DNA of 64,000 bases from Candidatus Sysuimicrobium tengchongense (GCA_031460175.1 JAVKGW010000001.1:83021-147020); one strand, 5' to 3'; positions 22,841 through 39,335 are shown, counted from the stretch's first letter. Notes: generated by a model not told the origin, from the letters alone. Made by a program: numbers and translations.

Positions 22841-23311
22841 TTACTCACTGCGCCCCTCAGAACATCTCCGAATCTCCTCGACATACTCCGCTGGTAGACC
22901 GTGCTCCTTCGCCCCCTTCAGGATATGGTCCAAATACTCTCGGGTCGGCCGTAGACCTGCGCTAACCTTTTCGCGATTGGCAATATAGGTCTGTGCATGG
23001 ATGATTTCACCTTCGCGAGTCATCACCTCCACTTGCCTTCGCTCGTAATGACCGGGTACCCCTTCACAACGATCCAGATAACTAAGTTCTGCGCTCGTCA
23101 GTCGATAGACGGCACCCCACACCTGACTGCCACCGCGCGGCACGATGTTAGCCTTACCAGACCCATCGTTACCCTTCTTATTGAAGGCAAACCTGTAGTC
23201 CCGCAGATAGCCGACCTTGGAGTCCACCCTATCACGACCTATGCGCTTGTGTAGGCGGTCTGAATCTAGGTTGGACCCGTACGCAAAGTACCACACAGTG
23301 TCATCTTGCAT
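22841..23311 (-). CDS. Gamma-glutamylcyclotransferase-like (AIG2/GGCT fold) protein
   Basis: WYFAYGSNLDSDRLHKRIG contains the YGSNL hallmark. AT-richer than its flanks. Last gene of the long minus-strand defense array. Confidence 0.78.
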   Translation of the reverse strand: MQDDTVWYFAYGSNLDSDRLHKRIGRDRVDSKVGYLRDYRFAFNKKGNDGSGKANIVPRGGSQVWGAVYRLTSAELSYLDRCEGVPGHYERRQVEVMTREGEIIHAQTYIANREKVSAGLRPTREYLDHILKGAKEHGLPAEYVEEIRRCSEGRSE

Positions 23312-23370
23312 TGCCCACCGACCCCCGCTTCACATGAGAGCCACTACTGCCCTCCCGTTCCCTACCTAAC

Positions 23371-26300
23371 CTACTCCCTCTCGAACCCGTGGCTGGTGAA
23401 CTTCAGCGTCCGGCAGTTCTCCGTCACCACCCGCACCACCCGCTCCGGCACCCCCTCCGGTACGGTGGCCTCGATCTCCAGCGTCACGCGCACCTGTGCG
23501 CCCGGCAGGCCCGCGAGGTGTGCGACCACCTCCTCCTGGACCCGCCCGGCCTCCGCCCCCGCCCGCAGTGGGTCCAGGACCACGCTCCCGTGGAACCGGC
23601 GGAAGACCACCCTGGGGCCTACCACCGTTTCCGTGCCGGTCTCGCCCCCGGCGGTGGCTTCCGTGGTCACCGCCTCGCCAGTGTCCCCTCCTGCCCTGGC
23701 CTCCCTGCGCGGCTCCTCCGACTTCCGCCGTGCCTCCTCGTCCAGTTCCCGGCGCGCCACCTCAGGGCGAACCACCAGCCCCGCGGGAGCATCCGCCGAC
23801 AGGGGTACGTGCTGCCCCGCCCGCAGGCCCCGGTACCGCCCCGCCCGCTCGTCATACGAGTCCGCGTACGCGAACCCGTCCTGCTCCCACGTGAGGAGCG
23901 CTACGCCGCTGGAAACCGCGGTTACCAAGACCGACGGGTCCCTCAGCCGGGGCAGGTATACGTACCGCGCGAAGTCCTCCACCAGCTGCCGCACCTCCAC
24001 GTGGTCGCCCCGCCACAGCGGGATCCGGTCGAGTTCCTGGCGGAGGCGCGGTCCGCCAAACACCGTCACCAGCAGCTCGTCCCGCAGCAACCGCTTGCTC
24101 GCCCGCTCCGCCAGACCCTCGTTCCCCTGCAGCCGGACTTCCTGCCAGGCGACCTCCGCCGTCGGGTCAGGCTGCACCGGCACCAGCAGCCAGCAGAAGG
24201 TCTCGGGCAACCGTGCTTTCACGGTCAGGTCGCTCGCCTGCTTCTGCTGCTCCGCCTGCCGGACCTGGTGAGGCGTGAGGTCCAGAGCCTCCCTGTCGTC
24301 CAGCACCGACTCCCACGCCAGGTAGCGCCGGACCGCCTCGTCCAGGTCCTGCACCCGGGCCCGGTCCGCGGCCAGGAACACCAGCGTGTTCCGGTACAGC
24401 CGAGGCCCTGCTCCCCGCGACTCCAGGATTTCCCGGGCCCGCCGCTGGGCAGGGCTTTCCTCGCCCCGCGCGTGCGGGAATTCCAGGCCCAGCACCACCA
24501 GGCGCGCGTCCAGGTCGTCGGGCACGTCCTGAGGGGACTGAGGGAAAGCGTGGACGCGGCTGAAGGCCCCGCTCTTCCTCACGTCCTCCCGCACCCGGCG
24601 CTCCACCTCCCGCGCCACCTTCTCGGGCTCGCGCCTCAGCTGCTCTGCCCGGCCCTCTGCCAGACTCGTGACGTTGGGCTGGGTCGAGTACCAGTAGCGC
24701 ACCCCGTCCTGGTACAGGAAGGTGGCGTCGCCCGTGAGCCTGCGGAGCGCGTCCCCGAAGATCTGGGGGGTCTCCCCGGGCGCCACGCACCCCAGCCGCA
24801 CCCGTCGGTCCTCGATCCCCCGGTGGGCGGCCTGCTGCGTGGGCGCGGACCCCAGGAAGATGGTCCGCGCCACGCGGCGGCAGGCGTGGTACTTCCCGAG
24901 GTTCGGCACCTCTCCGTCCAGACGCACGGGCAGCGAGTTGGGCCCGTCCACGTCCTTGTCGATCACCGGCACCCAGTTCTCGGACAGGTACCGGGTGAGC
25001 TCGAACTGCACCCGCGGGTCGTCCATGGGAATTGTGGAGGGCAGAATGAGTGGGCTCCTATCCCCCCGCTCCCACAGGCTGTGGATCACCGCGGCCATCA
25101 GCCGCAGGACGCCTCGGGTCCGCTGAAACCGCGGCAGGCTCCCCCAGTCCTCGTACAGGCGCGCGAACACCTCCGGGTGGATGGGGTAGGCGTCCTTAAG
25201 CTTGCGCTCGTAGTCCGGCTCGCTGCACTCCGGGGGGAACTCCGCCTTCTGTGTGCGGTAGAGGTCCGCGAACGCCCGGGCCACCACGTCCCGCGCCTTG
25301 AACTGCTCGGGATCCCTCATGGGCTCGAACAGCCGACGGCGGACGATCTCAAAGGTCTCCTCTTGCGTGGCGGGCCGCCAGGGCGCCTCCATCCGTCCGA
25401 TCACGTTGCGCAGCCGGTCGAGCGCCTCTCGGCCGCGGATCCCACCCACCTCGATGTCCTCCGCCTGGACGTACGGGGATACGGGGTCGCTGGCGGGGAG
25501 GGCAATCGCCACGAGGCACGCGCGGGCCGCCCGGGCGCACTCGGTCAGCGCCTGGGCGAAGGTGAACTGGGTGTCGAAGGTGCCGCCGGGCAGGTCGGGT
25601 GTGTCGTGGAGCTGTCGGGCGTAGGCCACCCACTCGTCGATCAACACCAGACACGGTCCGTAGGTGTCGAACAGCTCCCGCAGCGTGTCCCCGGGGCTCG
25701 TGGCCTTCTCGTCGTCCGCCGCCACCCGAGCGTACGCCCTGCGGGCCTCCTCCAGGCCCCCGGCGGCGAAGCCGAGCTGCCAGGCGAGCTCGCCCCACAG
25801 CGTGCGGACCACCGTCCCGTCGGGTTTCACCGTGGGGTTGCCCGGGGAGATACGGCTTCCGACCAGGGCCACCCGGCGCACCTGCGGTAGCCGGCTCACC
25901 CCCGCCTCCGCCATCACCGCGTCCGCACCCGGGAGCTCCGCGGGCGGCCTTCCGGAGAAGAGGTGGTACAGGGCGATCATGGCGTGGGTCTTACCGCCCC
26001 CGAAGTTCGTCTGCAGCTGCACAACGGGGTCGCCCTTGCCTTCGGACAGCCGAAGGACCGCATTCACCAACAGCCGCTTGAGGTTCTCCGTCAGGTACGT
26101 GCGCCGGAAGAACTCCACGGGGTCCTGATACTCCGAGGAGGCCTCGCCCCGGTACACCTGCCACAGGTCGGCCGCGAACTCCGCCTGCTGGTAGCGGCCG
26201 CTGGCCACATCCGGGTGCGGGCTGATGACCTCCCGCCACGGCTTCAGGGCCCCGGCTGTAGCGGCCTCCACCAAAGACCCGCCCACCTTTCGCCGCTCCG

Positions 26301-26742
26301 CCCGCACCTGCTCCTCGAACCGAACCCGGAGCAGCTCCATCTTCATCCGCTCAAGCTCCTCCACCTGGGGAGCGGAGACGGCCGAGAGCAACCGACTTGC
26401 GGAGTCCAACACGCGGTAGGCGTCATCTGTGCTGAACGCCTCCTGGTGAGCCCACTTGTTCCGCCAGTCCCGTAGCTCCGAGACGAGACTGCGCTCCGCC
26501 TGACCCAGGGGCCGCCGGAACACCTCGTCCCACCCGGCCCCCATGACTTTCAACAACGCTGCCACGTCCCAGTCCCGAATGGGCTTACTTGCCACGTTTC
26601 GGTCGTCCCCCACAAGGCGCAGAGCTTCCGCCATTGCTTGACCCCGGTACTGTCCCCGGAGCTCCCGCTCGACAAACGGCCCCAGGCCCGCCCGCAGCAG
26701 GTCCAGCGCCTTACCTACCCGCTCGTGGTTAGTCACCGCCAT
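23371..26742 (-). CDS. Large P-loop ATPase with N-terminal Swt1-like HEPN domain (DUF499-like)
   Basis: 1123 aa. N-terminal region ...LRDWRNKWAHQEAFSTDDAYRVLDSASRLL is HEPN-like. Deviant Walker A LQTNFGGGKTHAMIALYHLF, with a downstream Walker B (VLIDEW). Confidence 0.68.
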   Translation of the reverse strand: MAVTNHERVGKALDLLRAGLGPFVERELRGQYRGQAMAEALRLVGDDRNVASKPIRDWDVAALLKVMGAGWDEVFRRPLGQAERSLVSELRDWRNKWAHQEAFSTDDAYRVLDSASRLLSAVSAPQVEELERMKMELLRVRFEEQVRAERRKVGGSLVEAATAGALKPWREVISPHPDVASGRYQQAEFAADLWQVYRGEASSEYQDPVEFFRRTYLTENLKRLLVNAVLRLSEGKGDPVVQLQTNFGGGKTHAMIALYHLFSGRPPAELPGADAVMAEAGVSRLPQVRRVALVGSRISPGNPTVKPDGTVVRTLWGELAWQLGFAAGGLEEARRAYARVAADDEKATSPGDTLRELFDTYGPCLVLIDEWVAYARQLHDTPDLPGGTFDTQFTFAQALTECARAARACLVAIALPASDPVSPYVQAEDIEVGGIRGREALDRLRNVIGRMEAPWRPATQEETFEIVRRRLFEPMRDPEQFKARDVVARAFADLYRTQKAEFPPECSEPDYERKLKDAYPIHPEVFARLYEDWGSLPRFQRTRGVLRLMAAVIHSLWERGDRSPLILPSTIPMDDPRVQFELTRYLSENWVPVIDKDVDGPNSLPVRLDGEVPNLGKYHACRRVARTIFLGSAPTQQAAHRGIEDRRVRLGCVAPGETPQIFGDALRRLTGDATFLYQDGVRYWYSTQPNVTSLAEGRAEQLRREPEKVAREVERRVREDVRKSGAFSRVHAFPQSPQDVPDDLDARLVVLGLEFPHARGEESPAQRRAREILESRGAGPRLYRNTLVFLAADRARVQDLDEAVRRYLAWESVLDDREALDLTPHQVRQAEQQKQASDLTVKARLPETFCWLLVPVQPDPTAEVAWQEVRLQGNEGLAERASKRLLRDELLVTVFGGPRLRQELDRIPLWRGDHVEVRQLVEDFARYVYLPRLRDPSVLVTAVSSGVALLTWEQDGFAYADSYDERAGRYRGLRAGQHVPLSADAPAGLVVRPEVARRELDEEARRKSEEPRREARAGGDTGEAVTTEATAGGETGTETVVGPRVVFRRFHGSVVLDPLRAGAEAGRVQEEVVAHLAGLPGAQVRVTLEIEATVPEGVPERVVRVVTENCRTLKFTSHGFERE

Positions 26743-26759
26743 GGCTCACCCCCCAGCCC

Positions 26760-27065
26760 CTATATCTCCACACCGCGGCTGCGAAAGTCTACGATGATGG
26801 AGTCCAAGACCCCGCGGGCCTCAAGAACGGCACGATTCGCGTCCTCGCGGGTTGCTTCTGGCCAGTCCCCAGGGTAGCGGGCTTCAATAGCCCAGACCGT
26901 CAGTTCGGAAAGATCCGGGTACTGGTCCTTCACCCGCCAGCCGGCAGGCAGCAAGTCGCGCAACGCGTTCAGGTTATGCCGAAAAAGGGTCTCTGCCTGC
27001 CTCAAGTCCTCCATCGCAAACTTGAGCCAACGCAACGCCTCCTCCGTCCACTTAGCCGCGTTCAT
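26760..27065 (-). CDS. HEPN-domain protein (toxin of a HEPN/MNT pair)
   Basis: About 100-aa all-helical protein overlapping the upstream MNT gene by 14 nt. Start at internal ATG 27065. Confidence 0.65.
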   Translation of the reverse strand: MNAAKWTEEALRWLKFAMEDLRQAETLFRHNLNALRDLLPAGWRVKDQYPDLSELTVWAIEARYPGDWPEATREDANRAVLEARGVLDSIIVDFRSRGVEI

Positions 27066-27411
27066 ACACCACCCTGCCCTCACGCAACGCTGATCTGAGG
27101 ACGCTTCCCGGCACGTCCCCGCGACGGTCAATTTCGGCCGGGCTCGTGACGATCACATCTACGGCGACAGGCATCCCCTGGGGATCACGCAGACCGTTCA
27201 GGGCACGAAGCGCCTCCACCATAGCAGTGCGTTTGTCTCGAACTTCCGGCAAAACGACGAGGAAATCAAAGTCACTCCATCTTCCCGCCTCTCCCCTCGC
27301 CCGCGAGCCAAAGAGAATGATGCGCAGAGGCTGGAGCCGCTCGACGATCCGCCGCACCGCAGAGTCCAGGACCGGGTCGCGGAGACCCGCTGTACTCTCG
27401 TCCCTATTCAC
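27052..27411 (-). CDS. Minimal nucleotidyltransferase (MNT antitoxin partner)
   Basis: LRIILFGSRARGEAGRWSDFDFLVVL is the GS-x9-13-DxD NTase motif. GTG 27411 with GGAGG upstream. Confidence 0.78.
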   Translation of the reverse strand: MNRDESTAGLRDPVLDSAVRRIVERLQPLRIILFGSRARGEAGRWSDFDFLVVLPEVRDKRTAMVEALRALNGLRDPQGMPVAVDVIVTSPAEIDRRGDVPGSVLRSALREGRVVYERG

Positions 27412-27822
27412 GTTCTCCTCCCTCCCCCGTATCCGCAAACAGCCGGACGCCGACGGGCAGCTCCTTGCGGGCGAGGCGAGCGACCTCCGGCCACCCCAGC
27501 ACCAAGGCGTTGTAGGCCTGCGCGTCCTGGGACCTGCCCTTCTTCTCCGCGATTGCGAACAGGCGGGAGGCGAGATCGCGGGCCAGCTCCCCCCGGGAAC
27601 TTGGCCTAACGAAATCACCCCACCACCTCATTCCCTCGAAAGTCAATCGACTTCACGGCAATCCGCCCGTGCTCTCCGGGCTGGAAGGGGAAGGAGCGGG
27701 TGTCCCGAAGCTTCTCAAACGCCTCCGGCTCGATCCAGGCCTTAAGCGCCCGCCGGAGCCCCTCCAGCTGTTGCGTGATTTGTAGGCAAGAAAACAGATA
27801 CGCTTGCCGAAAGCAAACATCC

Positions 27823-29028
27823 TCAAGTGTCCTCCTTCGTTTGCATCGCGCCGGGGTCCAGGCCGAGCTCCCGCAGAGCGGCCTGGATCTCCTCCAGCCG
27901 ATTGGGCGGGATGCCCCCTTCCGGGGCCACTTCAACGCGCACACGCAGGCGCAGGCTGGGGTCGGTGGCGAAGTGGGTGAGCACCTTCATGTAGAACTGC
28001 GACCACTTGTGCGGCGGAAGTTCGCCTTCCCAGAAGAGGCGGCGCGGCGGGGGTGGCGGTGGCGGCGGGGGTGGGGGCGGAACTGCGTCTTTCCGAACAC
28101 GGACTACAGCCCTTGCCGTTAAGGCCCCGCCTCGAGCTTCGACTTCAAACTCTCCCTCTTCAATCCCGGCCACAAAGTTCCCGTTGCTGTCAATTTCGCC
28201 CCCTCGGGCTGACCAGACCACGCTTTCGATGCGCCGGCCATCCTGGTCAAGTGCCTGAAATTGAACGCTCCCGCCCGGACGAAGTATCACCTCCCCAGGC
28301 TCGATTCTGAGCTGAGCAGGAGGGGGAGCCTTCTTTGTTGTAATAAAGACATCTTCTGCAAACTCCACACTTTCCGGGGTGAAGGTGGGGTCGTTCCAGA
28401 TGATGGGGCCGCCCATCGAGAAATACCCGAACTTGCCTTCCCGCACGCCCCGGGCGATGGTGTTTTTGAGGACATCAGGATGGAGAAGCCGCGGGAGCCG
28501 CGGCGAGGCGAAGAAGGCGTCCCGCACCGCCCTGGTGCTCCACTCCTCCAAAGCGGGCGGCCAGTGGCGGACCAGGAAGTCCGGGCTGATGGCCTCTTCC
28601 AGCAGGCCCTCCTGCTTGAGGCGGGAGAGGATGAGGCTCGTCAGGGACTCCGAGGCGCTCGGGTGCAAAAGCCCCAGGTCCACCTCCCGCATGTCGTTGT
28701 CCTCCCCTAGAAGGAGCACGCGCCGGTAGGCCCGCCACACGCCCTCCTTCAGGTTCCGCCCTGTTCGTTGCTTTTTCTCCCTGAGCTCCTGCAACTGGGA
28801 ATCGTCCAGCCTGAGCCGCTCCCGCTCGGCGGGGTCCTCCAGGCTTTCCAGGGCAAGCAGGGTCCTGGCCTCATCCAGAAGCTGGGCGTCGCCTTCGGCC
28901 ACGGCGAAGATAAGCCCGCTTTTGTAGGTCCGCCCCCGCCCGCCGCAGTTCTGGATCATGTCCATCACCAGCCGGCGGGTCTTCTCCCGCAGGGCGTTCT
29001 CATAGCTGTGCTCCGGCGCCAGCACCAC
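27823..29028 (-). CDS. Hypothetical protein with central Big_2-like Ig domain and poly-Pro linker
   Basis: 401 aa. ...IEPGEVILRPGGSVQFQALDQDGRRIESVVWSARGGEIDSNGNFVAGIEEGEFEVEARGGALTARAVV is Big_2-like, followed by PPPPPPPPPPPP. Downstream, two short overlapping ORFs in other frames (27615-27944 and 27404-27646) may be frameshifted continuations. Confidence 0.45.
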   Translation of the reverse strand: MVLAPEHSYENALREKTRRLVMDMIQNCGGRGRTYKSGLIFAVAEGDAQLLDEARTLLALESLEDPAERERLRLDDSQLQELREKKQRTGRNLKEGVWRAYRRVLLLGEDNDMREVDLGLLHPSASESLTSLILSRLKQEGLLEEAISPDFLVRHWPPALEEWSTRAVRDAFFASPRLPRLLHPDVLKNTIARGVREGKFGYFSMGGPIIWNDPTFTPESVEFAEDVFITTKKAPPPAQLRIEPGEVILRPGGSVQFQALDQDGRRIESVVWSARGGEIDSNGNFVAGIEEGEFEVEARGGALTARAVVRVRKDAVPPPPPPPPPPPPRRLFWEGELPPHKWSQFYMKVLTHFATDPSLRLRVRVEVAPEGGIPPNRLEEIQAALRELGLDPGAMQTKEDT

Positions 29029-29119
29029 CAGCCTCAGGGCGGGGACGAGGACGAGGGTAGCTGCCTCTACCCGGTCTTCCCCCGTACAGGCCTACGCAAC
29101 GCGCCCGGGCGCTATAGCG

Positions 29120-29998
29120 TCAGAAAAGACTCGGTTGCCTATCGCCGGTCTGGAGGGCAAGGGCAACCCGATTGTAAGGCTTGCCCTCCTTATCGGGGAA
29201 TGCCCAGAGGTTGAATCGGCGGTGAAGCCTGAATTGCTGCTTCCATGGCGGTTGCTGCAGATCCTGATACCAGTGAGCCACCATCCTTCCGAGGTCGCGT
29301 TTCACAGGTCGGGAAGAGCTCCCCACCATCGCTTGTTGCGTCGCGCCAAGAAGCAGGTCGCAGAATTGGAGGAGATCGTTGTTCGTGGAATCCTCCAACC
29401 TCAGGTGCAATTTTACTGCAGGATAGGGTTTGCCTTCCGACTTTCCTAAGAGTGCGTCCAATTCAGCTCGGAAGGGAAGATAATCCTCAAAGTTATCAAT
29501 CCATCCTTGATCAGGCCGGCTCATCCGATCTTTGGCGTCGGATATGAACGTGATTTCTACCCCATCCAGGTTTTCAGGCCCCAGGAACCATGCGATGCCT
29601 GCCTTGAGCGCCATAGCAGTGAAGCGGTTATAAGCGTGGTAATCTTTGGGGAAGCGTTTGGGGTCGTGAGCCGGGCTGTGGCGATCCACCGCCAGAACGG
29701 TGAAGCGGGCAAGGTCGGCAAGCCCGGATTGGAAAGCATTCATCCAGCGTCTGGCAATCCGCGCTTTAGCACCGTATGACCCATCGAAGCTCTTAGGAAG
29801 GTCGGAGAAATGCACTTCTCCCCAGTAGTCCTCTCTTTGTCTCCCATCCCGCAGGGTCGCCTGTACCTTCTCCAGGTCGGCATCCCGGACAAACAGAAGC
29901 CCCACAAGGAACCAGCGCTTGTTGGGGATGCTTTCATCGTGGAACAGGTGGTAGGTCTGGCGGCGGATGACTGGATTGCCCCAGAGGTCCCGCTGCAT
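29120..29998 (-). CDS. DUF3800-like protein
   Basis: 292 aa. N-terminal YHLFHDESIP... (D-E-S motif) and C-terminal LQFCDLLLGA resemble DUF3800 as I recall it. AT-richer composition. Lies 4 nt downstream of hsdS. Confidence 0.45.
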   Translation of the reverse strand: MQRDLWGNPVIRRQTYHLFHDESIPNKRWFLVGLLFVRDADLEKVQATLRDGRQREDYWGEVHFSDLPKSFDGSYGAKARIARRWMNAFQSGLADLARFTVLAVDRHSPAHDPKRFPKDYHAYNRFTAMALKAGIAWFLGPENLDGVEITFISDAKDRMSRPDQGWIDNFEDYLPFRAELDALLGKSEGKPYPAVKLHLRLEDSTNNDLLQFCDLLLGATQQAMVGSSSRPVKRDLGRMVAHWYQDLQQPPWKQQFRLHRRFNLWAFPDKEGKPYNRVALALQTGDRQPSLF

Positions 29999-30001
29999 GC
30001 C

Positions 30002-31261
30002 TCATAGCTCTCCGCGGAAGGCTTTGTCCAGGATGGCCTGCTCCAGGCGCTGAAGTTCCGCTTCGGTTGCCGCTTGCGCCTCCTTGAGCGCCCGGACCCT
30101 CTCCTGCACTGCCTCCAGGTGCGCCACGATGCGGCGTTGTTCCTCGAGGGGTGGGAGGGGGACGAGGTATTGTTCGAGGAATTCTTGGGGGACCCTTTGT
30201 TGCCCCACACCACCCCGGAAGGCCTTTTTGGCATCTTTCCGAAAACGCTCCTGCCTTATGAAAAGCCATATCCATTCTGGAATAACGTTTTTCCCTGGCC
30301 GCAGCACATGGAACTCGGTGGACCCAAATCCAATGCTGTTTATCAACCCGCGCGCGATCGCTGCTTTGCCGTTTTCCATGCAGGGTGTTATCTTGGCAAA
30401 AAGGATGTCGTTTTCTTCAAAGTAGGTGTAGCCCTTCCTAACCTCTTCATAAGGGCGCTCTTGAGCGGCAACAATCGTTCCAGTTTCATCATCAACTGCC
30501 GACATTGGGACAAAGGTCGTAGAAGCATTGGGTGCCCGTTGCATGCGAGGTCGGCGGGGATTAATCTCGCACACCTCCCCCAACCTCACCCACCGCCAGC
30601 CTTCAGGCAGGGGCGCACAGCCGTGCGCCCCTACGTCGGGGCGGGGAAAGGTTTCGGCAAGGGTGGCCTGCCAAAGGCGTTCGGCGTCTTCCAGGGCTTC
30701 TTCGCGAAGGCGGCGCGCCTCCCGCACCCGCGCCATCAGCTCTTCGATCCGCGCCACGATGCGCCGCTGTTCGGGAAGGGGCGGGAGGGGGATGGGATGT
30801 TGTTCGAGGAATTCTTGTGGCACCCTTTGTTGCCCCACGCCACCTCGAAACGCTTTCTTAGCCTCTTCCCGAAAGCACTCCTGCCTTACAAAGAGCCATA
30901 TCCACTCGGAAATGATGCTTTCCCCCGGGCGCAGGACGTGGAATTCGGTCGACCCAAACCCAATACCATCGCGCAGGCAACGGGCAATCGCAGCCTTCCC
31001 ATTTTCCATGCAAGGCGTAATCTTCGCAAAAAGCACGTCGTTTTCTTCGAAGTAAGTGTAGCCCTTCCTGACCTCTGCAAAAGGGCGCTCCTCAGCAGCA
31101 ACAATTTCGCCGGTTGCATCATCAACGGCGGACATCGGAACGAATGTAGTTGGTTCACTTTCCTCGCGCTGAATGCGAGGACGCCGAGGATTGATTGTGC
31201 ACACCTCCCCCAGCCGCACCCACTGCCAGCCTTCGGGGAGTTTGTAGGGTCCTTCAGTCAT
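30002..31261 (-). CDS. hsdS: Type I restriction-modification specificity subunit HsdS
   Basis: 419 aa with two target-recognition domains plus conserved central and distal helices (PLPPLPEQRRIVARIEEL / PLPPLEEQRRIVAHLEAV). The two halves are about 85% identical to each other. Confidence 0.9.
   Translation of the reverse strand: MTEGPYKLPEGWQWVRLGEVCTINPRRPRIQREESEPTTFVPMSAVDDATGEIVAAEERPFAEVRKGYTYFEENDVLFAKITPCMENGKAAIARCLRDGIGFGSTEFHVLRPGESIISEWIWLFVRQECFREEAKKAFRGGVGQQRVPQEFLEQHPIPLPPLPEQRRIVARIEELMARVREARRLREEALEDAERLWQATLAETFPRPDVGAHGCAPLPEGWRWVRLGEVCEINPRRPRMQRAPNASTTFVPMSAVDDETGTIVAAQERPYEEVRKGYTYFEENDILFAKITPCMENGKAAIARGLINSIGFGSTEFHVLRPGKNVIPEWIWLFIRQERFRKDAKKAFRGGVGQQRVPQEFLEQYLVPLPPLEEQRRIVAHLEAVQERVRALKEAQAATEAELQRLEQAILDKAFRGEL
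30020..31250. repeat. Internal tandem duplication within hsdS (two roughly 600-nt half-gene copies)
   Basis: Protein halves LPEGWQWVRLGEVCTINPRRPR...FLEQHPIPLPPLPEQRRIV and LPEGWRWVRLGEVCEINPRRPR...FLEQYLVPLPPLEEQRRIV are near-identical, and the nucleotide similarity is visible. Confidence 0.8.
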
Positions 31262-31649
31262 GGTTTTGTGCCTCCCTCTCCAGGTAAGCCCGCACCTTTA
31301 CGACAAATTCATGGGCCGCTCTGAGCAAGTCTTCTGCTTCCTCGCGGCTTACCGTGATCCCAACGGCATAATCCCCGGTCAAACGAACATCATAAGCCCT
31401 CCGGAGCGCCCGCCCCAGTTCAGGATCAAATATCCCAGTCTGAACAAAATGCTTGCCGAAAAGGCCGATCACGCCGCGATGGGAGGAGGCGGAAAGGCCT
31501 TTGAGCATGAGGGCGGCTTCGGCCATGAAGAACATGGCATAGTAACAGCGAGAGGCACAGGAATCATAGTCCCCCACCTTGAAAAGATGTTCGGCACTTT
31601 GGAGGAAACGCTCCGCTTTGGCAACGAAATCCCTGAGCTCTTTCTTCAT
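31254..31649 (-). CDS. HEPN-domain protein (toxin of a HEPN/MNT pair embedded in the Type I RM operon)
   Basis: 131 aa helical protein (...CASRCYYAMFFMAEAALMLKG...). Overlaps hsdS by 8 nt and the MNT gene by 4 nt. Confidence 0.72.
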   Translation of the reverse strand: MKKELRDFVAKAERFLQSAEHLFKVGDYDSCASRCYYAMFFMAEAALMLKGLSASSHRGVIGLFGKHFVQTGIFDPELGRALRRAYDVRLTGDYAVGITVSREEAEDLLRAAHEFVVKVRAYLEREAQNHD

Positions 31650-31966
31650 ATGTGCACCCCTTCGCGGCGCACATTCGCCAGGAAAGGCGAGGCATACGCT
31701 TCGTAATACCCCTCAGGGACAACGACCACAGAAATGAGTTCCCCCGTCTCAAGCAGAATATCGAAGAGCAGCGCATCCAGGGAACGCCGCACCTGCCAGG
31801 GGTCCAGGGAATCCTCAACGACCACCAGGAGATCCACATCCGAATCCTCGGTGGCCGTCCCCAGCGCATAAGATCCGTAAAGGATCACCGCTTTGATTCC
31901 GGAGCCGTACCTTCCTGCAAGGAAGTCCTTCACTCTGCGAACAATCGCGCGGACATCCTCAGCCAT
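31646..31966 (-). CDS. Minimal nucleotidyltransferase (MNT antitoxin)
   Basis: AVILYGSYALGTATEDSDVDLLVVV is the NTase GS...DxD motif. Overlaps the hsdM stop by 8 nt. Confidence 0.8.
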   Translation of the reverse strand: MAEDVRAIVRRVKDFLAGRYGSGIKAVILYGSYALGTATEDSDVDLLVVVEDSLDPWQVRRSLDALLFDILLETGELISVVVVPEGYYEAYASPFLANVRREGVHI

Positions 31967-33458
31967 TCTCGTCCTCCCGGTTGTTCCCGAGGATCTCGCT
32001 CAGTTCTTCCACAATGCTCAGGACCTCCCGCTCCTTCTCCAGTAGCCCCGCCACGATCTCCACCGGCGAGGGGAGGGCCTCCGTTTCCTTGCGGTTCGGA
32101 TTGCGGGCCGTGAGGTCGTAGCCCCGCTTTTTGATATCCTCCACCGGCACGATCCAGGAGCGCTCCGAGAGACAGGTCTCACGGGGACCCTGCCCCCTAC
32201 GGTAGGCATCCCATGCTTTCCAGAGGCGTCGCGCTTCTTCGAAGTGTTCGTCCTGAATAGGGCTTCCCTTGCTGAATTTCTTCAGCCCCTCGGGTAAGGG
32301 CAGTTCGTAATACCATATCTCCCGAGTGCGTCCCGGCCACTCAAAGAAAATGAGGGCGGTCTTTACATCTACAGGAGCAAACGTACCGGGCGGCAGGCTC
32401 ACGATGGTGTGCAGGTTGAACTCTTCCAAAAGCGCCTTCTTCACCTCGGCGAAAGCCCCGCCGCGAAAGAGGGTTCCCTCCGGCACCACCATCCCGCAGC
32501 GGGCGCCGTCCCGGGGCTTGAGCTTGCGCATGATGTGCTGGAGGAAGAGGAGTTCCGTGGCGGAGGACTTGATGGGAAAGTTGGCCTGGATGTGCCGGCC
32601 CTCAACACCGCCGAAGGGCGGATTGGTCATGATGACATCAAAGCGCTCGGTGACCTGGCGGATGTTCTCTTCCAGCGTATTCCGGCGGTAAATGCGGGGC
32701 GCGGCCACGCCGTGAAGGACCATGTTCATCAGCCCCAGAAGGGCCGGGATGGGCTTCTTCTCCTGACCATAGAACGTGCGCTCCTGGAGCATGCGGTGGT
32801 CCTCCAGGGTCCTCTCCTGTCGTTTCATCCAGAGATACGCTTCTACAAGGAAGCCACAGGTGCCGCAGGCGGGATCGTAAACGGTCTCGCCGATCTGAGG
32901 GTTCACCACCTCCACGATGAATCGTATTACAGGTCGTGGTGTATATACCTCGCCTGCAATACCGACTTCGTTTCCCGTTCGATAAAGTAGAGACTCGTAT
33001 ACCTCTGAAACTGTGAAGATATCGTCCTGGCTATGAAAGTCAATCCCGTTGATGATCGTGATGACATCCTTGAGATTGTAACCGGAAGCGCAGACGATGA
33101 CGTTGCGCTCGGCGAAGACGCTGCGGATGGTTTCTCGCAACGGATCACCGCCCAGGTTCTGGAGATAGGGGATAAGCTTCCCATGCACAAAGGCAAGCAG
33201 GTCATCTGCAGGCCAGTCCTTCAAAGCCCAGTCCCGCCAGCGGTAGGGAGGTTCAATGATAGGCCGGTAGGGGCGGCCGGCGAGGGTCGCCTGGGTCTCC
33301 CACTCCTCTTCTTGAGCGTCCAGAAAGCGCAGGAAGAGGAGCCAGGACAGGTGCTCCACATACTCCATGATGCCGCCGCAGTTGTTGTCACGACGGAGGA
33401 TGTCACAAGCTCGCCAGATTTCGTTAGCCAAGGTCTCTCGGGTTTGAGGACGGTTCAT
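31959..33458 (-). CDS. hsdM: Type I restriction-modification DNA methyltransferase subunit HsdM (N6-adenine)
   Basis: HsdM N-terminal domain plus MTase motifs: VYDPACGTCGFLV (motif I) and VIMTNPPFGG (motif IV, NPPF). Confidence 0.92.
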   Translation of the reverse strand: MNRPQTRETLANEIWRACDILRRDNNCGGIMEYVEHLSWLLFLRFLDAQEEEWETQATLAGRPYRPIIEPPYRWRDWALKDWPADDLLAFVHGKLIPYLQNLGGDPLRETIRSVFAERNVIVCASGYNLKDVITIINGIDFHSQDDIFTVSEVYESLLYRTGNEVGIAGEVYTPRPVIRFIVEVVNPQIGETVYDPACGTCGFLVEAYLWMKRQERTLEDHRMLQERTFYGQEKKPIPALLGLMNMVLHGVAAPRIYRRNTLEENIRQVTERFDVIMTNPPFGGVEGRHIQANFPIKSSATELLFLQHIMRKLKPRDGARCGMVVPEGTLFRGGAFAEVKKALLEEFNLHTIVSLPPGTFAPVDVKTALIFFEWPGRTREIWYYELPLPEGLKKFSKGSPIQDEHFEEARRLWKAWDAYRRGQGPRETCLSERSWIVPVEDIKKRGYDLTARNPNRKETEALPSPVEIVAGLLEKEREVLSIVEELSEILGNNREDENG

Positions 33459-36133
33459 GCCGCTACCTCCTCACGGAGATAGAGCCGTTCTCGGACACTT
33501 TTCAATGCTTGACCGAGTTGGGCAGGGCCGCCAAACCAATCCTTGATCTTCACCGCTCCGCCCCATTCCCGGAAAGGTGACACCCCAAAGATCTCGGGCT
33601 CCAGTTGTTCAATTCCACCCACCCGGTATTTATCGAGCAACTCCAGAATGACCCGGCGGGCTTCCTCCCGGTGCTTGAGCAGAAAAGCCTGTTCCCGATT
33701 CAGGAAGGCCTCCGCCCGCTGGCGGCGGGTGCGAATGGGAGCCCCGAAGGCCAGATGGGCGAGGAGGTCGTAGGTGTCGGCTTCGGGCTGTCCCTCGATC
33801 TCGGCCAGGAGTTCGGGATGAACGCTGGCGCGGCGCAGCTCCTCCATAAAACGCCTGCGCTTCTCCGAATCCACCCAGATCTCCCGTAATGTTTTCTGCG
33901 TGGGTGCCGCCTCGATGACCCGGCTCCGGATGTAATCTCGATACTCCCTCAGAGTCAACTGCTGGCCGGTGGCGTCGATCGTGAAGATGATCTCGTCCTG
34001 AATAGCCACCTCCAGCCCCTCTACGCGGATCTTTTGGGGCTTGCCCTTTTGCTGCTTAAGCGGCACCTCCACCCATTGGACCGCGTCCGCAACGGTGTCC
34101 ACGCGCAGCTCTTTCCGCACATAGCCGGGTGCACTGACGATGAGGGTCAGCGTTCCCTCCGGAAGGCTCCGGAATGCGAACCTTCCGTTCTCGTCGGTGC
34201 GGATAGGCCCCTGCTGGGTGTTGGGTCCGGTGCGGATGGAAACAGAGGCGCCGACGATAACATCTCCAGTCTCGGCATCGCAAACAACCCCATCCACGCC
34301 CGCCGTCAGAGGACCCGCCGGCGGTTCAGGTGGCGGAACGGGCGGCCGATCCCACTGGTCGAATAGTCGGGTGGCACCAGTATAGTCGATGATGCGGAAC
34401 CAGTATTTGTCCGTAGCGGGATCCAGACGGCTCCCACGCCCGATGATCTGCTTAAAGAGCACAGGGGAGGAGATGGTCTTCATAAAAACGATGTTCCGGC
34501 AAGGAGGAACGTCCACGCCGGTCGTAAGCAATTCGGCAGTGGTGGCCACCACAGGCGCTTTCTTATTGGAGTCGGCGAAATCCTCCAGCCAGCGGCGGGC
34601 TTCTTCTCCTTCTTCGGAGATGATGGGCACAGCGTAGTTGTCCAGTCCGGTCTCGGGACCCAATTCGTCCCGGAGCAATCGGGCCACCAGGCGGGCATGC
34701 TCCATATCCACGCAGAAGACCATAGTCTTTTCCATCGGCCCGAAGCGGCGGAGCAACCCCGCCAGGTGTCGCACCATCTCCCTTGTGCGGTCCGGCAGGG
34801 TGATCTCCCGCTCAAACTGGGGCGTGTGGTAAACGGGGCGGGGCTCCACGTCCTCAGGAATGAAGACCTCTGCGCCCTGCTCCATGGCATCCTCCAGCCT
34901 GAGCCCCTGAGCATCTACGCTGGTGCGCACCACGTGCACCTTATAGGTGGCCAGAAACCCGTCCTCAATGCCCTGGCCGAGGCTATATTGGTATGCCGGA
35001 GGCCGCCAGGTGCCCCGCTCGGGGTGTTCCGGGTCTATGGAGACTTCGGGTTCTTCGCTGCAGAAGTAGGCATAGGTGTCAATGTTCTCATCCTGCTTGG
35101 GGGTAGCGGTCATCCCCAGGTGGATGGCTGAGGAGAAGTGGTCCAGGATCTCCCGCCAGGTTCCCCAGCCCGAGCGATGGCACTCATCAATGATGACCAG
35201 ATCAAAGAAATCAGGTGGAAAGCACTCAAAGAGCCGCTTCCCTTCCTCGTTGGGGCTCCAGAGGGTTTGATAGATGCCAAAGTAAAGGTCCCGGTTCAGG
35301 TTGGGCGGATGGCCTTCAATGAGGAAGCGGGGCTCGCTGGTCCCGGTAGCGAAGGGCGAGAACGTGTTGTAGGCCTGGTCGCGCAGGACGATCCGATCGG
35401 CGAGGAAGAGCACTCGCGCCGGCCGTCCGGGATGGCGGTTCTCCAGCCACCGGGACTTCAAGAGTTTCCAGACGATCTGGAAGGCCACGAAGGTCTTCCC
35501 CGTGCCCGTGGCCATCGTGAGGAGGATCCGCCGCTGGCCCCGCATAATGCGGAGGATCACCTCCCGGATGGCCACTTCCTGGAAGTAATAAGGGCGCTTG
35601 CCGCAGAGGCTCTCGGGGCAATAAGGACACAATAGGGGGTTGGTTTGCCTCTCTGGAAGCCCGTATATACTGGGGGCCTCTTTGAGCTGGCCTGGAACCG
35701 GCTGGGTCAGGCCTGTGTTTACCTGCCACCGCTGCCACAGATCATCCGGCGATGGGAATCGATCCAAATCCCGGGTGGTGTGCGTGAAGAAGTCATACTC
35801 TACGATCCTGTGTCCATTGGTGGAATAAGCGAAAGCCAGCCCCAGGTCCCGAGCATAGCCCTTGGCCTGTTCCAGGCCGGCATCAGGCGGGCTGTCCTCG
35901 GGTTCAGCCTCCACCACGGCGATGGGGAAGCCATCGGTGTAGCGCAATAGGTAATCTACCCGCCTGGGCTTGCCTCGCCGGATGCGATCTCCAACTAAAA
36001 TAATTTTCCCGGGCGTGTATTGATGGTCTCGGTTGTAATAAAACTCCCTCCCAAGGTGTTGATCCGTCCAGCCTGCAGCCTTAAGTTTGAGCTCAACAAG
36101 CCTTGCCCGGGTTTCCGCTTCATTCATCCCCAT
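33455..36133 (-). CDS. hsdR: Type I restriction enzyme R subunit HsdR with an inserted carboxypeptidase-regulatory-like beta-sandwich domain
   Basis: MNEAETRARLVE N-terminal nuclease region. SF2 motifs LLTMATGTGKT, VIIDECHR and QIIGRGSR. EcoEI_R_C-like tail. Start moved to ATG 36133; the track's upstream extension is a repeat-encoded remnant (see findings). Confidence 0.9.
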   Translation of the reverse strand: MGMNEAETRARLVELKLKAAGWTDQHLGREFYYNRDHQYTPGKIILVGDRIRRGKPRRVDYLLRYTDGFPIAVVEAEPEDSPPDAGLEQAKGYARDLGLAFAYSTNGHRIVEYDFFTHTTRDLDRFPSPDDLWQRWQVNTGLTQPVPGQLKEAPSIYGLPERQTNPLLCPYCPESLCGKRPYYFQEVAIREVILRIMRGQRRILLTMATGTGKTFVAFQIVWKLLKSRWLENRHPGRPARVLFLADRIVLRDQAYNTFSPFATGTSEPRFLIEGHPPNLNRDLYFGIYQTLWSPNEEGKRLFECFPPDFFDLVIIDECHRSGWGTWREILDHFSSAIHLGMTATPKQDENIDTYAYFCSEEPEVSIDPEHPERGTWRPPAYQYSLGQGIEDGFLATYKVHVVRTSVDAQGLRLEDAMEQGAEVFIPEDVEPRPVYHTPQFEREITLPDRTREMVRHLAGLLRRFGPMEKTMVFCVDMEHARLVARLLRDELGPETGLDNYAVPIISEEGEEARRWLEDFADSNKKAPVVATTAELLTTGVDVPPCRNIVFMKTISSPVLFKQIIGRGSRLDPATDKYWFRIIDYTGATRLFDQWDRPPVPPPEPPAGPLTAGVDGVVCDAETGDVIVGASVSIRTGPNTQQGPIRTDENGRFAFRSLPEGTLTLIVSAPGYVRKELRVDTVADAVQWVEVPLKQQKGKPQKIRVEGLEVAIQDEIIFTIDATGQQLTLREYRDYIRSRVIEAAPTQKTLREIWVDSEKRRRFMEELRRASVHPELLAEIEGQPEADTYDLLAHLAFGAPIRTRRQRAEAFLNREQAFLLKHREEARRVILELLDKYRVGGIEQLEPEIFGVSPFREWGGAVKIKDWFGGPAQLGQALKSVRERLYLREEVAA

Positions 36134-36160
36134 CGGAGCTCCTCCCGAACGCCGTGGTCT

Positions 36161-36240
36161 TTGGATGGGTGCGCCGAGATCTGCCCGATGGGGGGGCTCG
36201 TCGGCCTCAATCAGGCGGTGCACGCCATCAGACATCCCTG
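36161..36240 (-). repeat. Roughly 75-nt diverged repeat encoding a DUF1156-like N-terminal peptide remnant, copy 1 (upstream of the hsdR start)
   Basis: Contains TGCGCCGAGATCTGCCCGATGGG...CTCGTCGG...TCAAT.AGGCGG. On the coding strand it translates as MSDGVHRLIEADEPPHRADLGAP. The second copy is at 38055-38130. Confidence 0.55.
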
Positions 36241-36280
36241 TTCCTCCCTGCCTAAATGTATCAGTCCCCAAATGCATCGT

Positions 36281-37961
36281 TCAAGAAGAGATGATTGCAT
36301 TTCCCCGTGAGATTGATGTATTTTGAATCGCTACATAGCAAGCACCTCGGCCTTTCCCCTGCTTCCTCAAAAAACCCATCTCCACAAGGTGCTGAAGAAG
36401 CCGAAAGGCCTGAATCCGTGAAACGCCGAAAACGCGCCGGACATCCTCATTTTTGACATAGCCTTTCTCATGTAGGATCGGCTCCAGGGCAAGGAGTTCC
36501 GGCGGCTTTTCCTGGGGCGCTTTCTCAGGTTCCGGGATGATCTCATACACTCGCCCTCGAGGCTGGTTGAGCCGCACGATTCTCCGGCGGAGGAGGTCCT
36601 TGATGTCACGACTGGCCGTGTAGGGGTCCACACCGACCAGTTTCTGATAAGCCCGGCTGGTGAACCGGCCTCCGTGCTCGTAGGCGTAAGCCAGAAGCCG
36701 CAGTTGATTGCGGGTGAGCCCCTGCCCTTCGTATCGCCGGAGCCAGTACATCGTCTCCGGTCGGTAGATCGGCGTGCTGTGGAGGGTGACGACAAAGCAG
36801 CCACCTTCCATGGCAAGCTCGGGTGGGCGTAGCCCCTCACGCTCCATCACCTCGAACATGCGTGGGATGCCCTCGCCACGCTCCCGCATGTAGCCCAGGT
36901 CCGTCAGCACCCGCACGATCCGCGGGTTCCGCGAGGCATGGACTTTTTCGCGACGGCGCAACCGTTCCAGGGTCACCGGCGGCACCGGCTCGCCAGGGCT
37001 ACGCACTTCCAGGCGGTCATCGAACAGATCCACTTCGATACCGATCCCTTCCAGAGCGTAATCCCGGTGCGCGATGGCGTTGACAATGGCTTCCTGCCAG
37101 GCGAAGGTGGGATAGACCAGGCGCTCTTCAAAGAAGAGGTCCACCAGGGTCTGCCGCTCAGGCAGATACGGCTGGATGGTCCTGTAGGCTTCCTCCACCA
37201 GCCGCACCAGCGGGATGCCTTCGATCCGAAGCCGCTTGCGGATGTTGAATTCCGGGCCGGTGCGTCGCTCGGTTCCCTGCCAGACGGCGAAATCAATCCC
37301 ACAGCGGGGATGCCAGCGAGAAGGATCTCGGCCGAAGAGCAACAGGGCAGCCCGGCGCAGGAAGAGACGCCCATTTCGCTTCTCGGCCAGATGGTAATGC
37401 AGGAGCGCTTCCTCGACCGACAGGTCCAGTCCTACGCGCTCGACGACTTCTTTCACCAGATCGGTGTTTATATCCGCCAGGGTGGCTTCGGGGACGATCT
37501 GATCTTCCCAGATCAGTTTACGACGTGCGTTCTTGATGGCTTCAATGTCCGTGGCGGGGAAGGGCAGGTTCTGGTCATTGTGACGGTAAAGGTAGCGTCC
37601 ATCGCTGAGCTGATGCACCTGCGGGCTCCAGTCGGTCTCGAAGACCCACACGCGCTTCCCTTCCAGGGTGATTTCATGAACACGAAAGCTCAGAGGGGGG
37701 GCGGATGAGGCTCCTGATCTGCGTCCTGACTTGCGCAAGGTTATAGCGCTCCGGAACGCCCGAAACAGTGCCGTCATCCTCAATACCGAGCACGACCGTG
37801 CCACCGTCGGCATTGGCCATAGCCGCCAGCGTTTCCGCCACATCCCGGATCACGTCTTTGACCGGTCGGGGACGGGGCACGTCGTCCCTCCGGTCATAGC
37901 AACTTTTGCGCTCCAAGAATTGCCCCTCGGATTGCTCTTTCACCCATGTCCAATCGGTCAT
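36281..37961 (-). pseudogene. AlbA_2 (Schlafen-like AAA_4) / HATPase_c_4 putative regulator, frameshifted at a C7 homopolymer
   Basis: N-terminal AlbA_2 domain is encoded in the frame of ORF 37674..37961 (...VVLGIEDDGTVSGV...). The rest is in the frame of ORF 36281..37843. Removing one C from the C7 run at 37695-37701 (coding strand) fuses them into ...IRSLIRPPLSFRVHEITLEG... Confidence 0.7.
37695..37701 (-). other. Homopolymeric C7 (G7 on plus strand) tract at the frameshift site
   Basis: Sequence ...cagagggggggcgg... read directly. Located exactly where the two reading frames of the AlbA_2/HATPase_c_4 gene switch. Confidence 0.8.
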
Positions 37962-38054: not shown

Positions 38055-38130
38055 TTCTGGCCCTTCCGGGCATGCGCCGAGATCTGCCCGATGGGCATCT
38101 CGTCGGTTTCAATGAGGCGGCGGATGGGGT
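38055..38130 (-). repeat. Roughly 75-nt diverged repeat encoding a DUF1156-like N-terminal peptide remnant, copy 2 (upstream of the AlbA_2 gene start)
   Basis: 23-nt exact match to copy 1. Translates as MPNPIRRLIETDEMPIGQISAHARKGQ (track ORF 37958..38173). Confidence 0.55.
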
Positions 38131-39335
38131 TAGGCATCCGTTTCTCCCTCCATATATGCAGATGCATTTTCAATGCGCCACAACAGGTAATTTATCACAA
38201 TCAATTGATGAAGAACCTCATACGGGTCCAAACGCACCAGTTCATGGTTCTCCGGCAAATGCCCCTTCGGATTCCTGAAGGCTTTAAAAACCCCTTCACA
38301 AATCAAAGCCAGTCCGGCTTGTTCATTTTTACCTGATTCCTTATCAAGATGAGCGTTAAAGCGAATCCTCAATTTCGCAGGCTCTCCTATTTGTTTCATT
38401 GTTGCCTGAACTAATTCGGCCTCATTTTTGTCCCATATACCGGAACGCTTTTGAATCTCTTCGTTGAGGACCTTGGTTGCCTCAAACACAGCTCCCACGA
38501 ATTTCCCAGCACGGAAGTAGCCTTCTGCCGCTTGCTTGACTCGTCTGTGAAGGGGAAAGTAATCAAAGAGTAGTTGTGGATCCGGATGCTCAGTCTCCCT
38601 TACGATTGCCTCATATAGAAGAGCTTTTTCAGTAGGAGATAACACGCGTTGTGATAGTAGTACTCCTTCATCAAAAACAATCCGTTCTTGAACACTACCA
38701 AAACGTTCCCAATCTTCTCGCTTGTTCCCTCCATAACGCTCGGCCCACCACACTCGCGCAATAATGTCCGCTTCGTCCTGCGGCTCGCCTTGTGGGCGGG
38801 AAACATCATCCCCCAGCTCTCTCAGAGCCGCAGCATAGAGAATCCGCCTATACAAAGGGCCACGCCCCATTTCCCTTTTAGAAATCTCCTTAGTTTTCAA
38901 TATCGCCTGGAGACATTCCCCTCCACGGTCGCTGCCCATTGCCTGGAAACCCAACGATAGGAGAAACACCTGCTCCGGATCACGCAGAGGCGACCATCTG
39001 TCGTCCGCGCCGAGTTGCTGCACCTTGTCACTCAACCGTGCGAACCACTCAGGTTCAAGTTCAAGGGAGCGGCCTGCTTTTCGGTTTAACCAGAAAGCCG
39101 CTGCTATTGGTCCTACATTCCGGTGCACATCCCAGACCTGTTCTTCTTCTACCCATTTTCGTATTTTCAAAACAAGCTCCTCAAAAGGTTGGTTATTCTC
39201 GGTCCCCTCAACGCTCAATGCATAGCCCAACCAGGCCGCCGCGAATGGATCCCAGCGGTCTTTCAGAACCTCCAGCTCCCTCAACAGGGCCTGACGCAGC
39301 TCACGTCTGTAGTGGTAAAAATCTACAGGAACCAT
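38130..39335 (-). CDS. Ymh-family (TIGR02391 / Hypoth_Ymh) HEPN-superfamily protein with an about 250-aa N-terminal extension. Candidate effector.
   Basis: C-terminal ...FVGAVFEATKVLNEEIQKRSG...GLALICEGVFKAFRNPKGH... matches the Ymh domain with an intact R-x4-H motif (RNPKGH). AT-rich codon usage. Start overlaps the 3' end of the pAgo gene by 13 nt. Confidence 0.65.
   Translation of the reverse strand: MVPVDFYHYRRELRQALLRELEVLKDRWDPFAAAWLGYALSVEGTENNQPFEELVLKIRKWVEEEQVWDVHRNVGPIAAAFWLNRKAGRSLELEPEWFARLSDKVQQLGADDRWSPLRDPEQVFLLSLGFQAMGSDRGGECLQAILKTKEISKREMGRGPLYRRILYAAALRELGDDVSRPQGEPQDEADIIARVWWAERYGGNKREDWERFGSVQERIVFDEGVLLSQRVLSPTEKALLYEAIVRETEHPDPQLLFDYFPLHRRVKQAAEGYFRAGKFVGAVFEATKVLNEEIQKRSGIWDKNEAELVQATMKQIGEPAKLRIRFNAHLDKESGKNEQAGLALICEGVFKAFRNPKGHLPENHELVRLDPYEVLHQLIVINYLLWRIENASAYMEGETDA

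Follow-up and report, generated by a model that had tools for sequence, protein, structure and literature searches.

A full-length Swt1-HEPN/DUF499 ATPase at what is probably the surviving 3' end of an overwritten Hma operon in Candidatus Sysuimicrobium tengchongense

We analyzed a 64,000-nt stretch of the Candidatus Sysuimicrobium tengchongense genome (GCA_031460175.1 JAVKGW010000001.1:83021-147020; hereafter the window), and within it a minus-strand gene array at 22841-29998 that had been put forward, from sequence alone, as a second candidate defence system built around a 1123-aa ATPase (hereafter the original prediction). Window proteins were searched with Pfam models at curated cut-offs and with PADLOC models, and the ATPase, which is the HmaC protein of the Hma defence family, was compared with a set of 80 genomic loci from many phyla that encode full-length relatives (60-81% identical). 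All of the minus-strand open reading frames (ORFs) originally listed are present at their given coordinates, and the array is made up as follows:

22841..23311, minus strand: gamma-glutamyl cyclotransferase (GGCT/AIG2_2), 156 aa (Pfam)
23371..26742, minus strand: hmaC, Swt1-HEPN + DUF499 (BrxC-like AAA+) ATPase, 1123 aa, full length (PADLOC, Pfam)
26760..27065, minus strand: HEPN protein, predicted toxin of a HEPN-MNT pair, between hmaB and hmaC (Pfam HEPN PF05168, 5.3e-6)
27052..27411, minus strand: MNT (minimal nucleotidyltransferase), partner of the HEPN protein (Pfam NTP_transf_2, 6.5e-11)
27434..27607, minus strand: 3' remnant (last ~55 codons) of hmaB, DUF1156 N6-adenine methyltransferase (PADLOC HmaB 910-955/967, 6.4e-8)
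27621..27818, minus strand: C-terminal tail of a different large methyltransferase, debris, in ORF 27615-27944 (PADLOC MTase_III 916-978/983, 2.2e-5)
27823..29028, minus strand: 5'-truncated second DUF499 gene with C-terminal winged helix-turn-helix (wHTH) region, beta-sandwich, poly-Pro and C-terminal domain, without the ATPase domain (PADLOC, BLASTP)
29120..29998, minus strand: DUF3800 protein, last gene of a type I restriction-modification (R-M) operon (Pfam DUF3800, 2.1e-5, 25.7 bits against a cut-off of 21)

The ATPase matches the PADLOC HmaC model (E=0, 1094 bits; aa 165-1121 on model positions 2-940 of 941) as well as Pfam HEPN_Swt1 at aa 11-123 (1.2e-36) and DUF499 (2.9e-23), and it carries RNKWAH at 94 (the R-x4-H of HEPN domains), GGGKTH at 248 and LIDEW at 367, bearing out both the N-terminal Swt1-like HEPN domain and the deviant, DUF499-type P-loop ATPase domain that had been proposed for it. 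As the large protein matches a named family, it is therefore an ordinary member of that family. Hma has been described as a system of hmaA (helicase-nuclease), hmaB (DUF1156 methylase) and hmaC (ATPase) (PMC11232893), and was renamed in a 2026 survey as the type-1 DUF499-centred BREX-related (BR) system, with the HEPN-fused DUF499 ATPase recorded in 1370 taxa and with DUF499, the DUF1156 methylase and the Snf2 helicase as homologous counterparts of BrxC, BrxXI and BrxHII (PMC12839542). The closest HmaC relative among the 80 loci comes from a Thermoflexus metagenome-assembled genome (L001, 81% identity), and a search for solved structures related to HmaC by sequence found none.

Of the 192 alignment columns without variation among 72 full-length homologues, the window protein retains 191; of the 391 conserved at a level of at least 95% it retains 381 (97.4%), which ranks it 7 of 73, at the low end of the normal range. 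Its sole loss at an invariant column is S414A (codon at 25501-25503), in the motif CLLV(I/V)S-LPAS about 45 residues past Walker B, where all 72 homologues carry serine. Judging from its place after Walker B, residue 414 is probably the AAA+ sensor-1 position, and the substitution may be a first sign of decay in an orphaned ATPase. With one invariant column lost and all others kept, hmaC is therefore either intact or barely starting to decay.

What sets the window apart is the state of the partner genes. In homologous loci the genes normally run hmaA (an Snf2 helicase that ends in a nuclease domain), hmaB (methylase), hmaC, as in L022. HmaB is near-complete (at least 80% kept) in 50 of the 58 loci with enough upstream sequence and absent from three, in agreement with the expectation that a DUF499 ATPase of a BREX- or R-M-like system is normally paired with a DUF1156 methylase, and hmaA is found in 35 of the 48 loci having at least 8 kb upstream. 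Comparison of operon architecture across homologues thus recovers linkage to HmaB and HmaA but none to GGCT or DUF3800 (each in 0 of 80 loci), and the view of the array as a second candidate system fails on this point. Both conserved partners are destroyed here. The operon holds no intact HmaB methyltransferase, as had been anticipated; the 80-aa ORF at 27404-27646 corresponds to the C-terminal end of HmaB (positions 910-955 of the 967 in the PADLOC model), and this tail has tblastn matches in 68 of the 80 hmaC loci. DUF1156-like remnants had been placed about 9 kb away, a location we reject: tblastn with 44 HmaB proteins and a hidden Markov model profile built from them, run over the six-frame translation of the window, gave a sole match at 27407-27652 (model positions ~910-958) and nothing more, and the DUF1156 remnant therefore adjoins the MNT gene. 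DNA homology to L001 and L003 begins abruptly at ~27600 and then runs through MNT, HEPN and hmaC. The counterpart of this edge lies beyond the array, next to a tRNA gene:

41406..44759, minus strand: HmaA2, intact HmaA-type Swi2/Snf2 helicase with C-terminal NOV_C nuclease domain (PADLOC HmaA, 5.3e-190; Pfam SNF2-rel_dom, Helicase_C, NOV_C)
45030..45305, minus strand: cognate hmaA, 5' remnant of ~100 codons (tblastn, HmaA proteins from 30 loci)
45527..45575 and 52330-52378, no strand: 49-nt perfect direct repeat of the tRNA-Phe 3' end (blastn, 100% over 49 nt)
52334-52409: tRNA-Phe (called by ARAGORN)

HmaA proteins of 30 loci align to 45030-45305 at 60-74% identity over their first ~100 residues only, every alignment ending at 45030, so that the cognate HmaA helicase-nuclease is cut to ~100 codons. 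HmaA2, in contrast, shares no more than 33-36% identity with HmaA from the 80 loci, and the cognate hmaA-hmaC pair is therefore broken. A G+C content of ~0.71 overall and ~0.90 at third codon positions (GC3) is common to hmaC, the hmaB tail (GC3 0.897) and the hmaA remnant (GC3 0.902), and matches the flanking host chromosome. The abrupt homology edges, the remnants and the shared host-like composition together indicate that an hmaA-hmaB-mnt-hepn-hmaC operon once adjoined tRNA-Phe, whose ancestral end beside the operon is marked by the repeat at 45527-45575.

Overall, we consider it likely that 22841-29998 is a mosaic built around what survives of a type-1 BREX-related (Hma) operon at its 3' end, the rest of that operon having been overwritten by other defence DNA. 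The ancestral hmaA-hmaB-[mnt-hepn]-hmaC operon would have stood beside tRNA-Phe with host-like composition, and replacement through insertions and deletions between ~27600 and 45030 would have taken hmaA past ~codon 100 and all of hmaB except its last ~55 codons, swapping ~6 kb of the operon for 17.4 kb of DNA that brought in a non-cognate HmaA-type helicase-nuclease, a short prokaryotic Argonaute (pAgo) system, a HATPase_c_4 protein, a type I R-M operon with DUF3800, the truncated second DUF499 gene and the methylase tail. In the intact system, following the roles proposed in the literature (PMC12839542, PMC11232893), HmaB would methylate and thereby mark self DNA, the BrxC-like HmaC would assemble and scan for unmodified DNA, the HmaA helicase-nuclease would then cut, and the Swt1-HEPN RNase at the HmaC N-terminus would serve as a backup, last-resort suicide effector. 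As the methylase and the cognate helicase are gone, hmaC would be unable to take part in modification-dependent restriction here, and it is most likely a recent relic, full length but orphaned.

The genes that surround hmaC in the array have separate histories. The MNT and HEPN neighbours are as originally named, with products of 119 and 101 aa and genes that overlap by 14 nt (gene calls in the near-identical record L087). The closest locus, L001, has the order hmaB-MNT-HEPN-hmaC; among the 80 loci, MNT lies between hmaB and hmaC in 11 and HEPN in three, and in 44 of 69 loci more than 250 nt separate hmaB from hmaC. The pair thus appears to be a self-contained predicted toxin-antitoxin insert, recurrent at an hmaB-hmaC hotspot. 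Inserted genes are present in 66.5% of hma operons, and a Halomonas hma hotspot has other defence genes inserted between hma genes (PMC11232893).

The 401-aa ORF at 27823-29028 had been taken for a Big_2/poly-Pro protein. A Big_2 identity is rejected, the match (residues ~234-312) being sub-threshold (E=0.024, 15 bits against a cut-off of 22.8), while a beta-sandwich is plausible. Residues 1-200 match PADLOC HmaC 565-773 of 941 at 3.5e-14, the protein aligns by BLASTP to residues 749-947 of the intact HmaC of the window, and its relatives are C-terminal parts of DUF499 proteins (PF04465). One contig, L251, shares the block hsdM-MNT-HEPN-hsdS-DUF3800-fragment with the window at 78-93% nucleotide identity; its copy of the 401-aa ORF (93.5% nucleotide identity) reaches 63 aa further into DUF499 sequence, and the two copies are both truncated DUF499 pseudogenes, cut at different points. 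The methylase tail at 27621-27818 is unmatched by the HmaB profile and absent from the otherwise syntenic L251. The fragmentary ORFs of the original prediction therefore exist but change in meaning, being the C-terminal tails of HmaB and of another methyltransferase. Elsewhere, relatives of the second DUF499 protein are split into overlapping ORFs of 314 aa (DUF499 ATPase) and 677 aa (L253 7088-10034, L254 1260-4206), either a conserved split or a shared frameshift; on both of these independent contigs the split ORFs adjoin a HamA-helicase (Hachiman-like) pair.

The DUF3800-like protein was correctly recognised, and its homologues, 55-80% identical across thermophiles of several phyla, carry precomputed PF12686. 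A homologue stands directly 3' of hsdS in L251 (7151-8026), in Thermosynechococcus (L260 7001-7885) and in a Bipolaricaulota genome (L261 7001-7882), making four independent genomes with this placement when the window is counted; an archaeal copy stands in a non-R-M context. The G+C content of the window copy fits the R-M genes, and DUF3800 belongs to the type I R-M block rather than being a partner of hmaC. Given this recurrent position, the family may have an accessory role in type I R-M operons that has gone unrecognised. Profile searches with the DUF499, Swt1 HEPN and DUF3800 models suggested in the original prediction thus all matched, while DUF3780, suggested with them, has no match in the window.

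The remaining member of the array is a canonical predicted gamma-glutamyl cyclotransferase, as had been proposed from its YGSN(L) motif. It scores 73.3 bits against Pfam AIG2_2 (2.2e-20; cut-off 27) and 59.6 bits against GGACT (5.9e-16; cut-off 22.8), and its family profile matches human GGCT (2pn7) at 2e-36; within the YGSN family motif Y11, S13 and N14 are invariant and G12 is found in at least 90% of sequences, and the catalytic E83 is nearly invariant. The gene lies on the same strand as hmaC across a gap of 59 nt, as originally stated and confirmed from coordinates, and a scan of the hmaC-GGCT junction revealed no terminator-like site and weak promoter-like sites only, inside the GGCT gene. 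Its composition (GC 0.541, GC3 0.580) departs from that of hmaC (0.706 and 0.897), and this foreign composition, together with its absence from all 80 hmaC loci, marks GGCT as a separate acquisition and not an Hma component.

A GGCT-fold enzyme in a defence context had been singled out as noteworthy, and this holds in part: members of its clade are found repeatedly in DISARM and R-M operons, though the enzyme is no partner of HmaC. In a neighbour-joining tree, 92 GGCT sequences fall into three groups: the first is a housekeeping clade in which synteny with thiolase and acyl-CoA dehydrogenase is conserved, the second is small, and the third contains the window gene. Five class-1 DISARM loci carry a member of this third clade between drmMI and drmA, on the same strand (L132 7992-8456, L097 1533-2003, L159 1408-1854, L124 605-1042, L085 1-513); in L132 the order is drmD-x-drmMI-GGCT-drmA with an 8-nt overlap, overlaps in L132 and L097 being 4-8 nt, and the DISARM-linked proteins are mostly 50-80% identical to one another. 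Other members, likewise on the same strand as these neighbours, follow a type III Res gene with a 4-nt overlap (L092 2998-3453, 53% identical to the window GGCT), a split type IIG R-M operon at a distance of 59 nt, McrBC being next door (L081 6001-6480), or an HKD-Snf2 helicase (L165 4017-4430), and further ones lie near MzaA, Cas10 and HsdR. Altogether, defence-linked loci amount to 13 of 46 in the clade of the window gene and to 0 of 44 in the two remaining groups (Fisher p ~9e-5, with those groups screened less completely). Among the long-flank loci of the window gene's clade, ~11 are without a PADLOC neighbour. On viral contigs we found 340 GGCT relatives (phrog_2520), whose usual neighbour is an amidoligase (phrog_2443; 26 of 80 loci, e.g. 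L174 677-1945 with GGCT at 2023-2448) and which in 10 of the 80 loci (L171-L250) lie beside a ParB-like DNA methyltransferase, near terminase genes; this context corresponds to the mobile amidoligase-GATase-GGCT module of prophages and archaeal islands. Plasmid contexts are mixed, with a metabolic operon, transporters and, in one case, an orphan DNA methylase followed by GGCT. A literature search for GGCT/AIG2 in connection with defence, DISARM, BREX or R-M found no linking paper, and only the mobile GATase-GGCT module of a Pyrococcus island.

Two other accounts of the array as a whole can be set against a decayed Hma operon. That DUF3800, the 401-aa protein, MNT, HEPN, the HEPN-DUF499 ATPase and GGCT constitute a single new defence system that has no methylase is what their shared strand, short gaps and location inside a defence island would favour, but we regard it as very improbable: besides the absence of GGCT and DUF3800 from every homologous locus, the 401-aa ORF is a truncated DUF499 gene, DUF3800 travels with hsdS, methylase tails lie between the genes, and the GC3 of neighbouring genes differs by up to 0.3. 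The description of the region as a tight array accordingly stands as regards short spacing and a single strand but not as one unit, GC3 within it spanning 0.58 (GGCT) to 0.90 (hmaC): the array is closely spaced, yet a mosaic. Alternatively, a split Hma system might still be working, through HmaA2 together with hmaC or through HmaA2 alone, with the other defence genes merely inserted. Here HmaA2 is full length with its SNF2, Helicase_C and NOV_C domains, hmaC is intact, insertions are common in this family, HmaA by itself protects against T4, and 15-20% of hmaA loci are without hmaB or hmaC (PMC11232893). We nevertheless judge this unlikely, given that the truncated remnant and not HmaA2 has the identity expected of the HmaA partners of this clade, that hmaB is down to 55 codons in a family where most loci keep it, and that S414A hits an invariant residue of the ATPase. 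Several of these facts do weigh against a decayed operon: the intact HmaA-type helicase 14.6 kb upstream of hmaC could in principle cooperate with it; methylase-less configurations can persist, as the defence by HmaA alone and the loci devoid of hmaB or hmaC imply; hmaC shows almost no decay and may thus still be selected for some function; the sensor-1 label of residue 414 derives from its position after Walker B; and around the two breakpoints, 27600 and 45030, a search for repeats and for the ends of mobile elements returned only 12-nt chance matches. On balance, a broken Hma operon remains our preferred reading of the core of the array.

A further proposal concerns GGCT itself, namely that the stand-alone clade including the window gene is an unrecognised accessory of methylation-based defence operons generally (class-1 DISARM at drmMI/drmA, type III and IIG R-M, BR/Hma, and with them the Hma remnant described here), acting on a gamma-glutamyl-linked molecule during infection. 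Its setting behind hmaC, with no terminator-like site between the two, the range of DISARM, R-M, helicase, MzaA, Cas10 and HsdR contexts and the skew of defence-linked loci towards one clade speak for it, and as the clade recurs and we found no paper that links it to these systems, a functional link is a reasonable, if unproven, lead. The foreign composition and the consistent absence of the gene from hmaC loci, the clade members that lack a PADLOC neighbour, the housekeeping character of sister clades and the frequency of GGCT as phage and plasmid cargo count against it. We therefore advance the accessory role only tentatively. The main alternative is hitch-hiking of a common mobile cargo gene, which could explain part of the pattern in mobile islands. 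Speculatively, the target of such an enzyme might be the product of the amidoligase-amidotransferase-GGCT modules of phages and plasmids, its action restoring restriction or triggering a response. What is new here is confined to two side observations, the GGCT clade in methylation-based defence operons and the DUF3800 family as a fixed 3' gene of type I R-M operons, and the GGCT-defence link is the only lead that we consider worth following.

Relative to known systems, hmaC is a typical HEPN-fused DUF499 ATPase of Hma/type-1 BR, and the window shares with that system the ancestral hmaA-hmaB-hmaC order, reconstructible from its remnants, and foreign inserts of the kind most hma loci have; it differs in lacking the three-gene core and in holding an HmaA of unrelated lineage 14.6 kb away. 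Type-3 BREX (BrxC ATPase, PglXI methylase, BrxHII helicase) is approached insofar as the window helicase also matches BrxHI/HII models, but PglZ, BrxA, BrxB/F and BrxL are missing from the window and the best PADLOC matches are to Hma, not Brx. The 401-aa fragment has a beta-sandwich-like segment before its C-terminal domain, recalling type-2 BR (DUF499 with a beta-sandwich before a C-terminal RRM, DUF3780 and an HKD-helicase), where this arrangement is found in 53% of the DUF499 proteins (PMC12839542); the window keeps a fragment only, with neither DUF3780 nor an HKD-helicase, and the likeness is one of domain layout to which we assign no subtype. The overlapping MNT and HEPN genes between two core genes are nothing unusual among the HEPN-MNT modules of R-M, BREX and BR operons, the adjacent type I system of the window has a second pair between its hsdM and hsdS genes, and embedded pairs of this kind have been reported as auxiliary or backup effectors (PMC12839542). 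The window GGCT matches human GGCT (C7orf24; PDB 2pn7) over its full length, with YGSN and the catalytic Glu, and belongs to the same PHROG family as the GGCT of the phage amidoligase-GATase-GGCT module (phrog_2520 with phrog_2443), but, like the other defence-linked copies, it stands without amidoligase or amidotransferase and beside methylase or helicase genes. With class-1 DISARM (drmD-drmMI-drmA-drmB-drmC) the window is connected via the GGCT clade at the drmMI/drmA junction of five loci only: it has no DrmMI, DrmA or DrmB genes, and its DrmD/DrmA matches are secondary ones from the HmaA-type helicase.

The DNA between the array and HmaA2 is occupied by other defence genes:

30002..36277, minus strand: type I R-M operon with hsdR, hsdM, MNT, HEPN and hsdS (PADLOC REase_I 4.9e-138, MTase_I 4.8e-143, Specificity_I 1.1e-156)
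36281..37843, minus strand: HATPase_c_4 + wHTH protein (Pfam HATPase_c_4 9.5e-25, MarR_2)
38130..41346, minus strand: short pAgo system with pAgo N-terminal part, PIWI protein and Aga_HEPN (PADLOC Aga_HEPN 1.1e-150, pAgo 7.4e-74)

The G+C content per gene is ~0.61 for MNT/HEPN and 0.54-0.60 for DUF3800 and the type I R-M genes. The short pAgo system (split pAgo with Aga_HEPN) stands at 0.46-0.50 inside a 0.70-GC genome, and is probably the most recent acquisition of the island. Homologues of the HATPase_c_4 + wHTH protein sit between hmaA and hmaB in 13 of the 80 hmaC loci (e.g. L011 5243-6796), and the architecture has been described as an auxiliary of BREX/BR loci (PMC12839542); the protein, known here from its HATPase_c_4 and wHTH part, fits the Schlafen/kinase/wHTH auxiliary of these systems. 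On the far side, the 49-nt repeat flanks a separate integrative element of ~6.8 kb with an integrase-like gene (~50756-51829) and a gene for a 929-aa AAA_25 protein (47408-50197). At the low-coordinate edge of the island lies a DUF4258/DUF2283 pair (20575-21068), and the same pair stands directly upstream of the Thermosynechococcus type I R-M operon (L260 1-350). Also at this edge, ~22700-22790 (minus strand, in ORF 22522-22884) resembles the C-terminus of the Thermus hypothetical protein 1whz (E 0.044), which we take to be HicA-like, and the stretch is probably a toxin-gene remnant.

If a true accessory of DISARM and R-M-like systems, GGCT would suggest that restriction-type immunity has a layer based on a small molecule or a peptide conjugate, and it might also tie in with the amidoligase/GGCT modules of phages, which are so far unexplained; DUF3800 directly after hsdS in thermophiles is a second, small association of interest. 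As for the array itself, it is in all probability a member of the known Hma/type-1 BR family in a decayed state and not a new system. Nested within a single 23-kb stretch beside a tRNA gene are what is left of two or more DUF499 systems, a type I R-M operon and a pAgo system, and the case illustrates how defence operons act as insertion hotspots and are overwritten by other defence modules.

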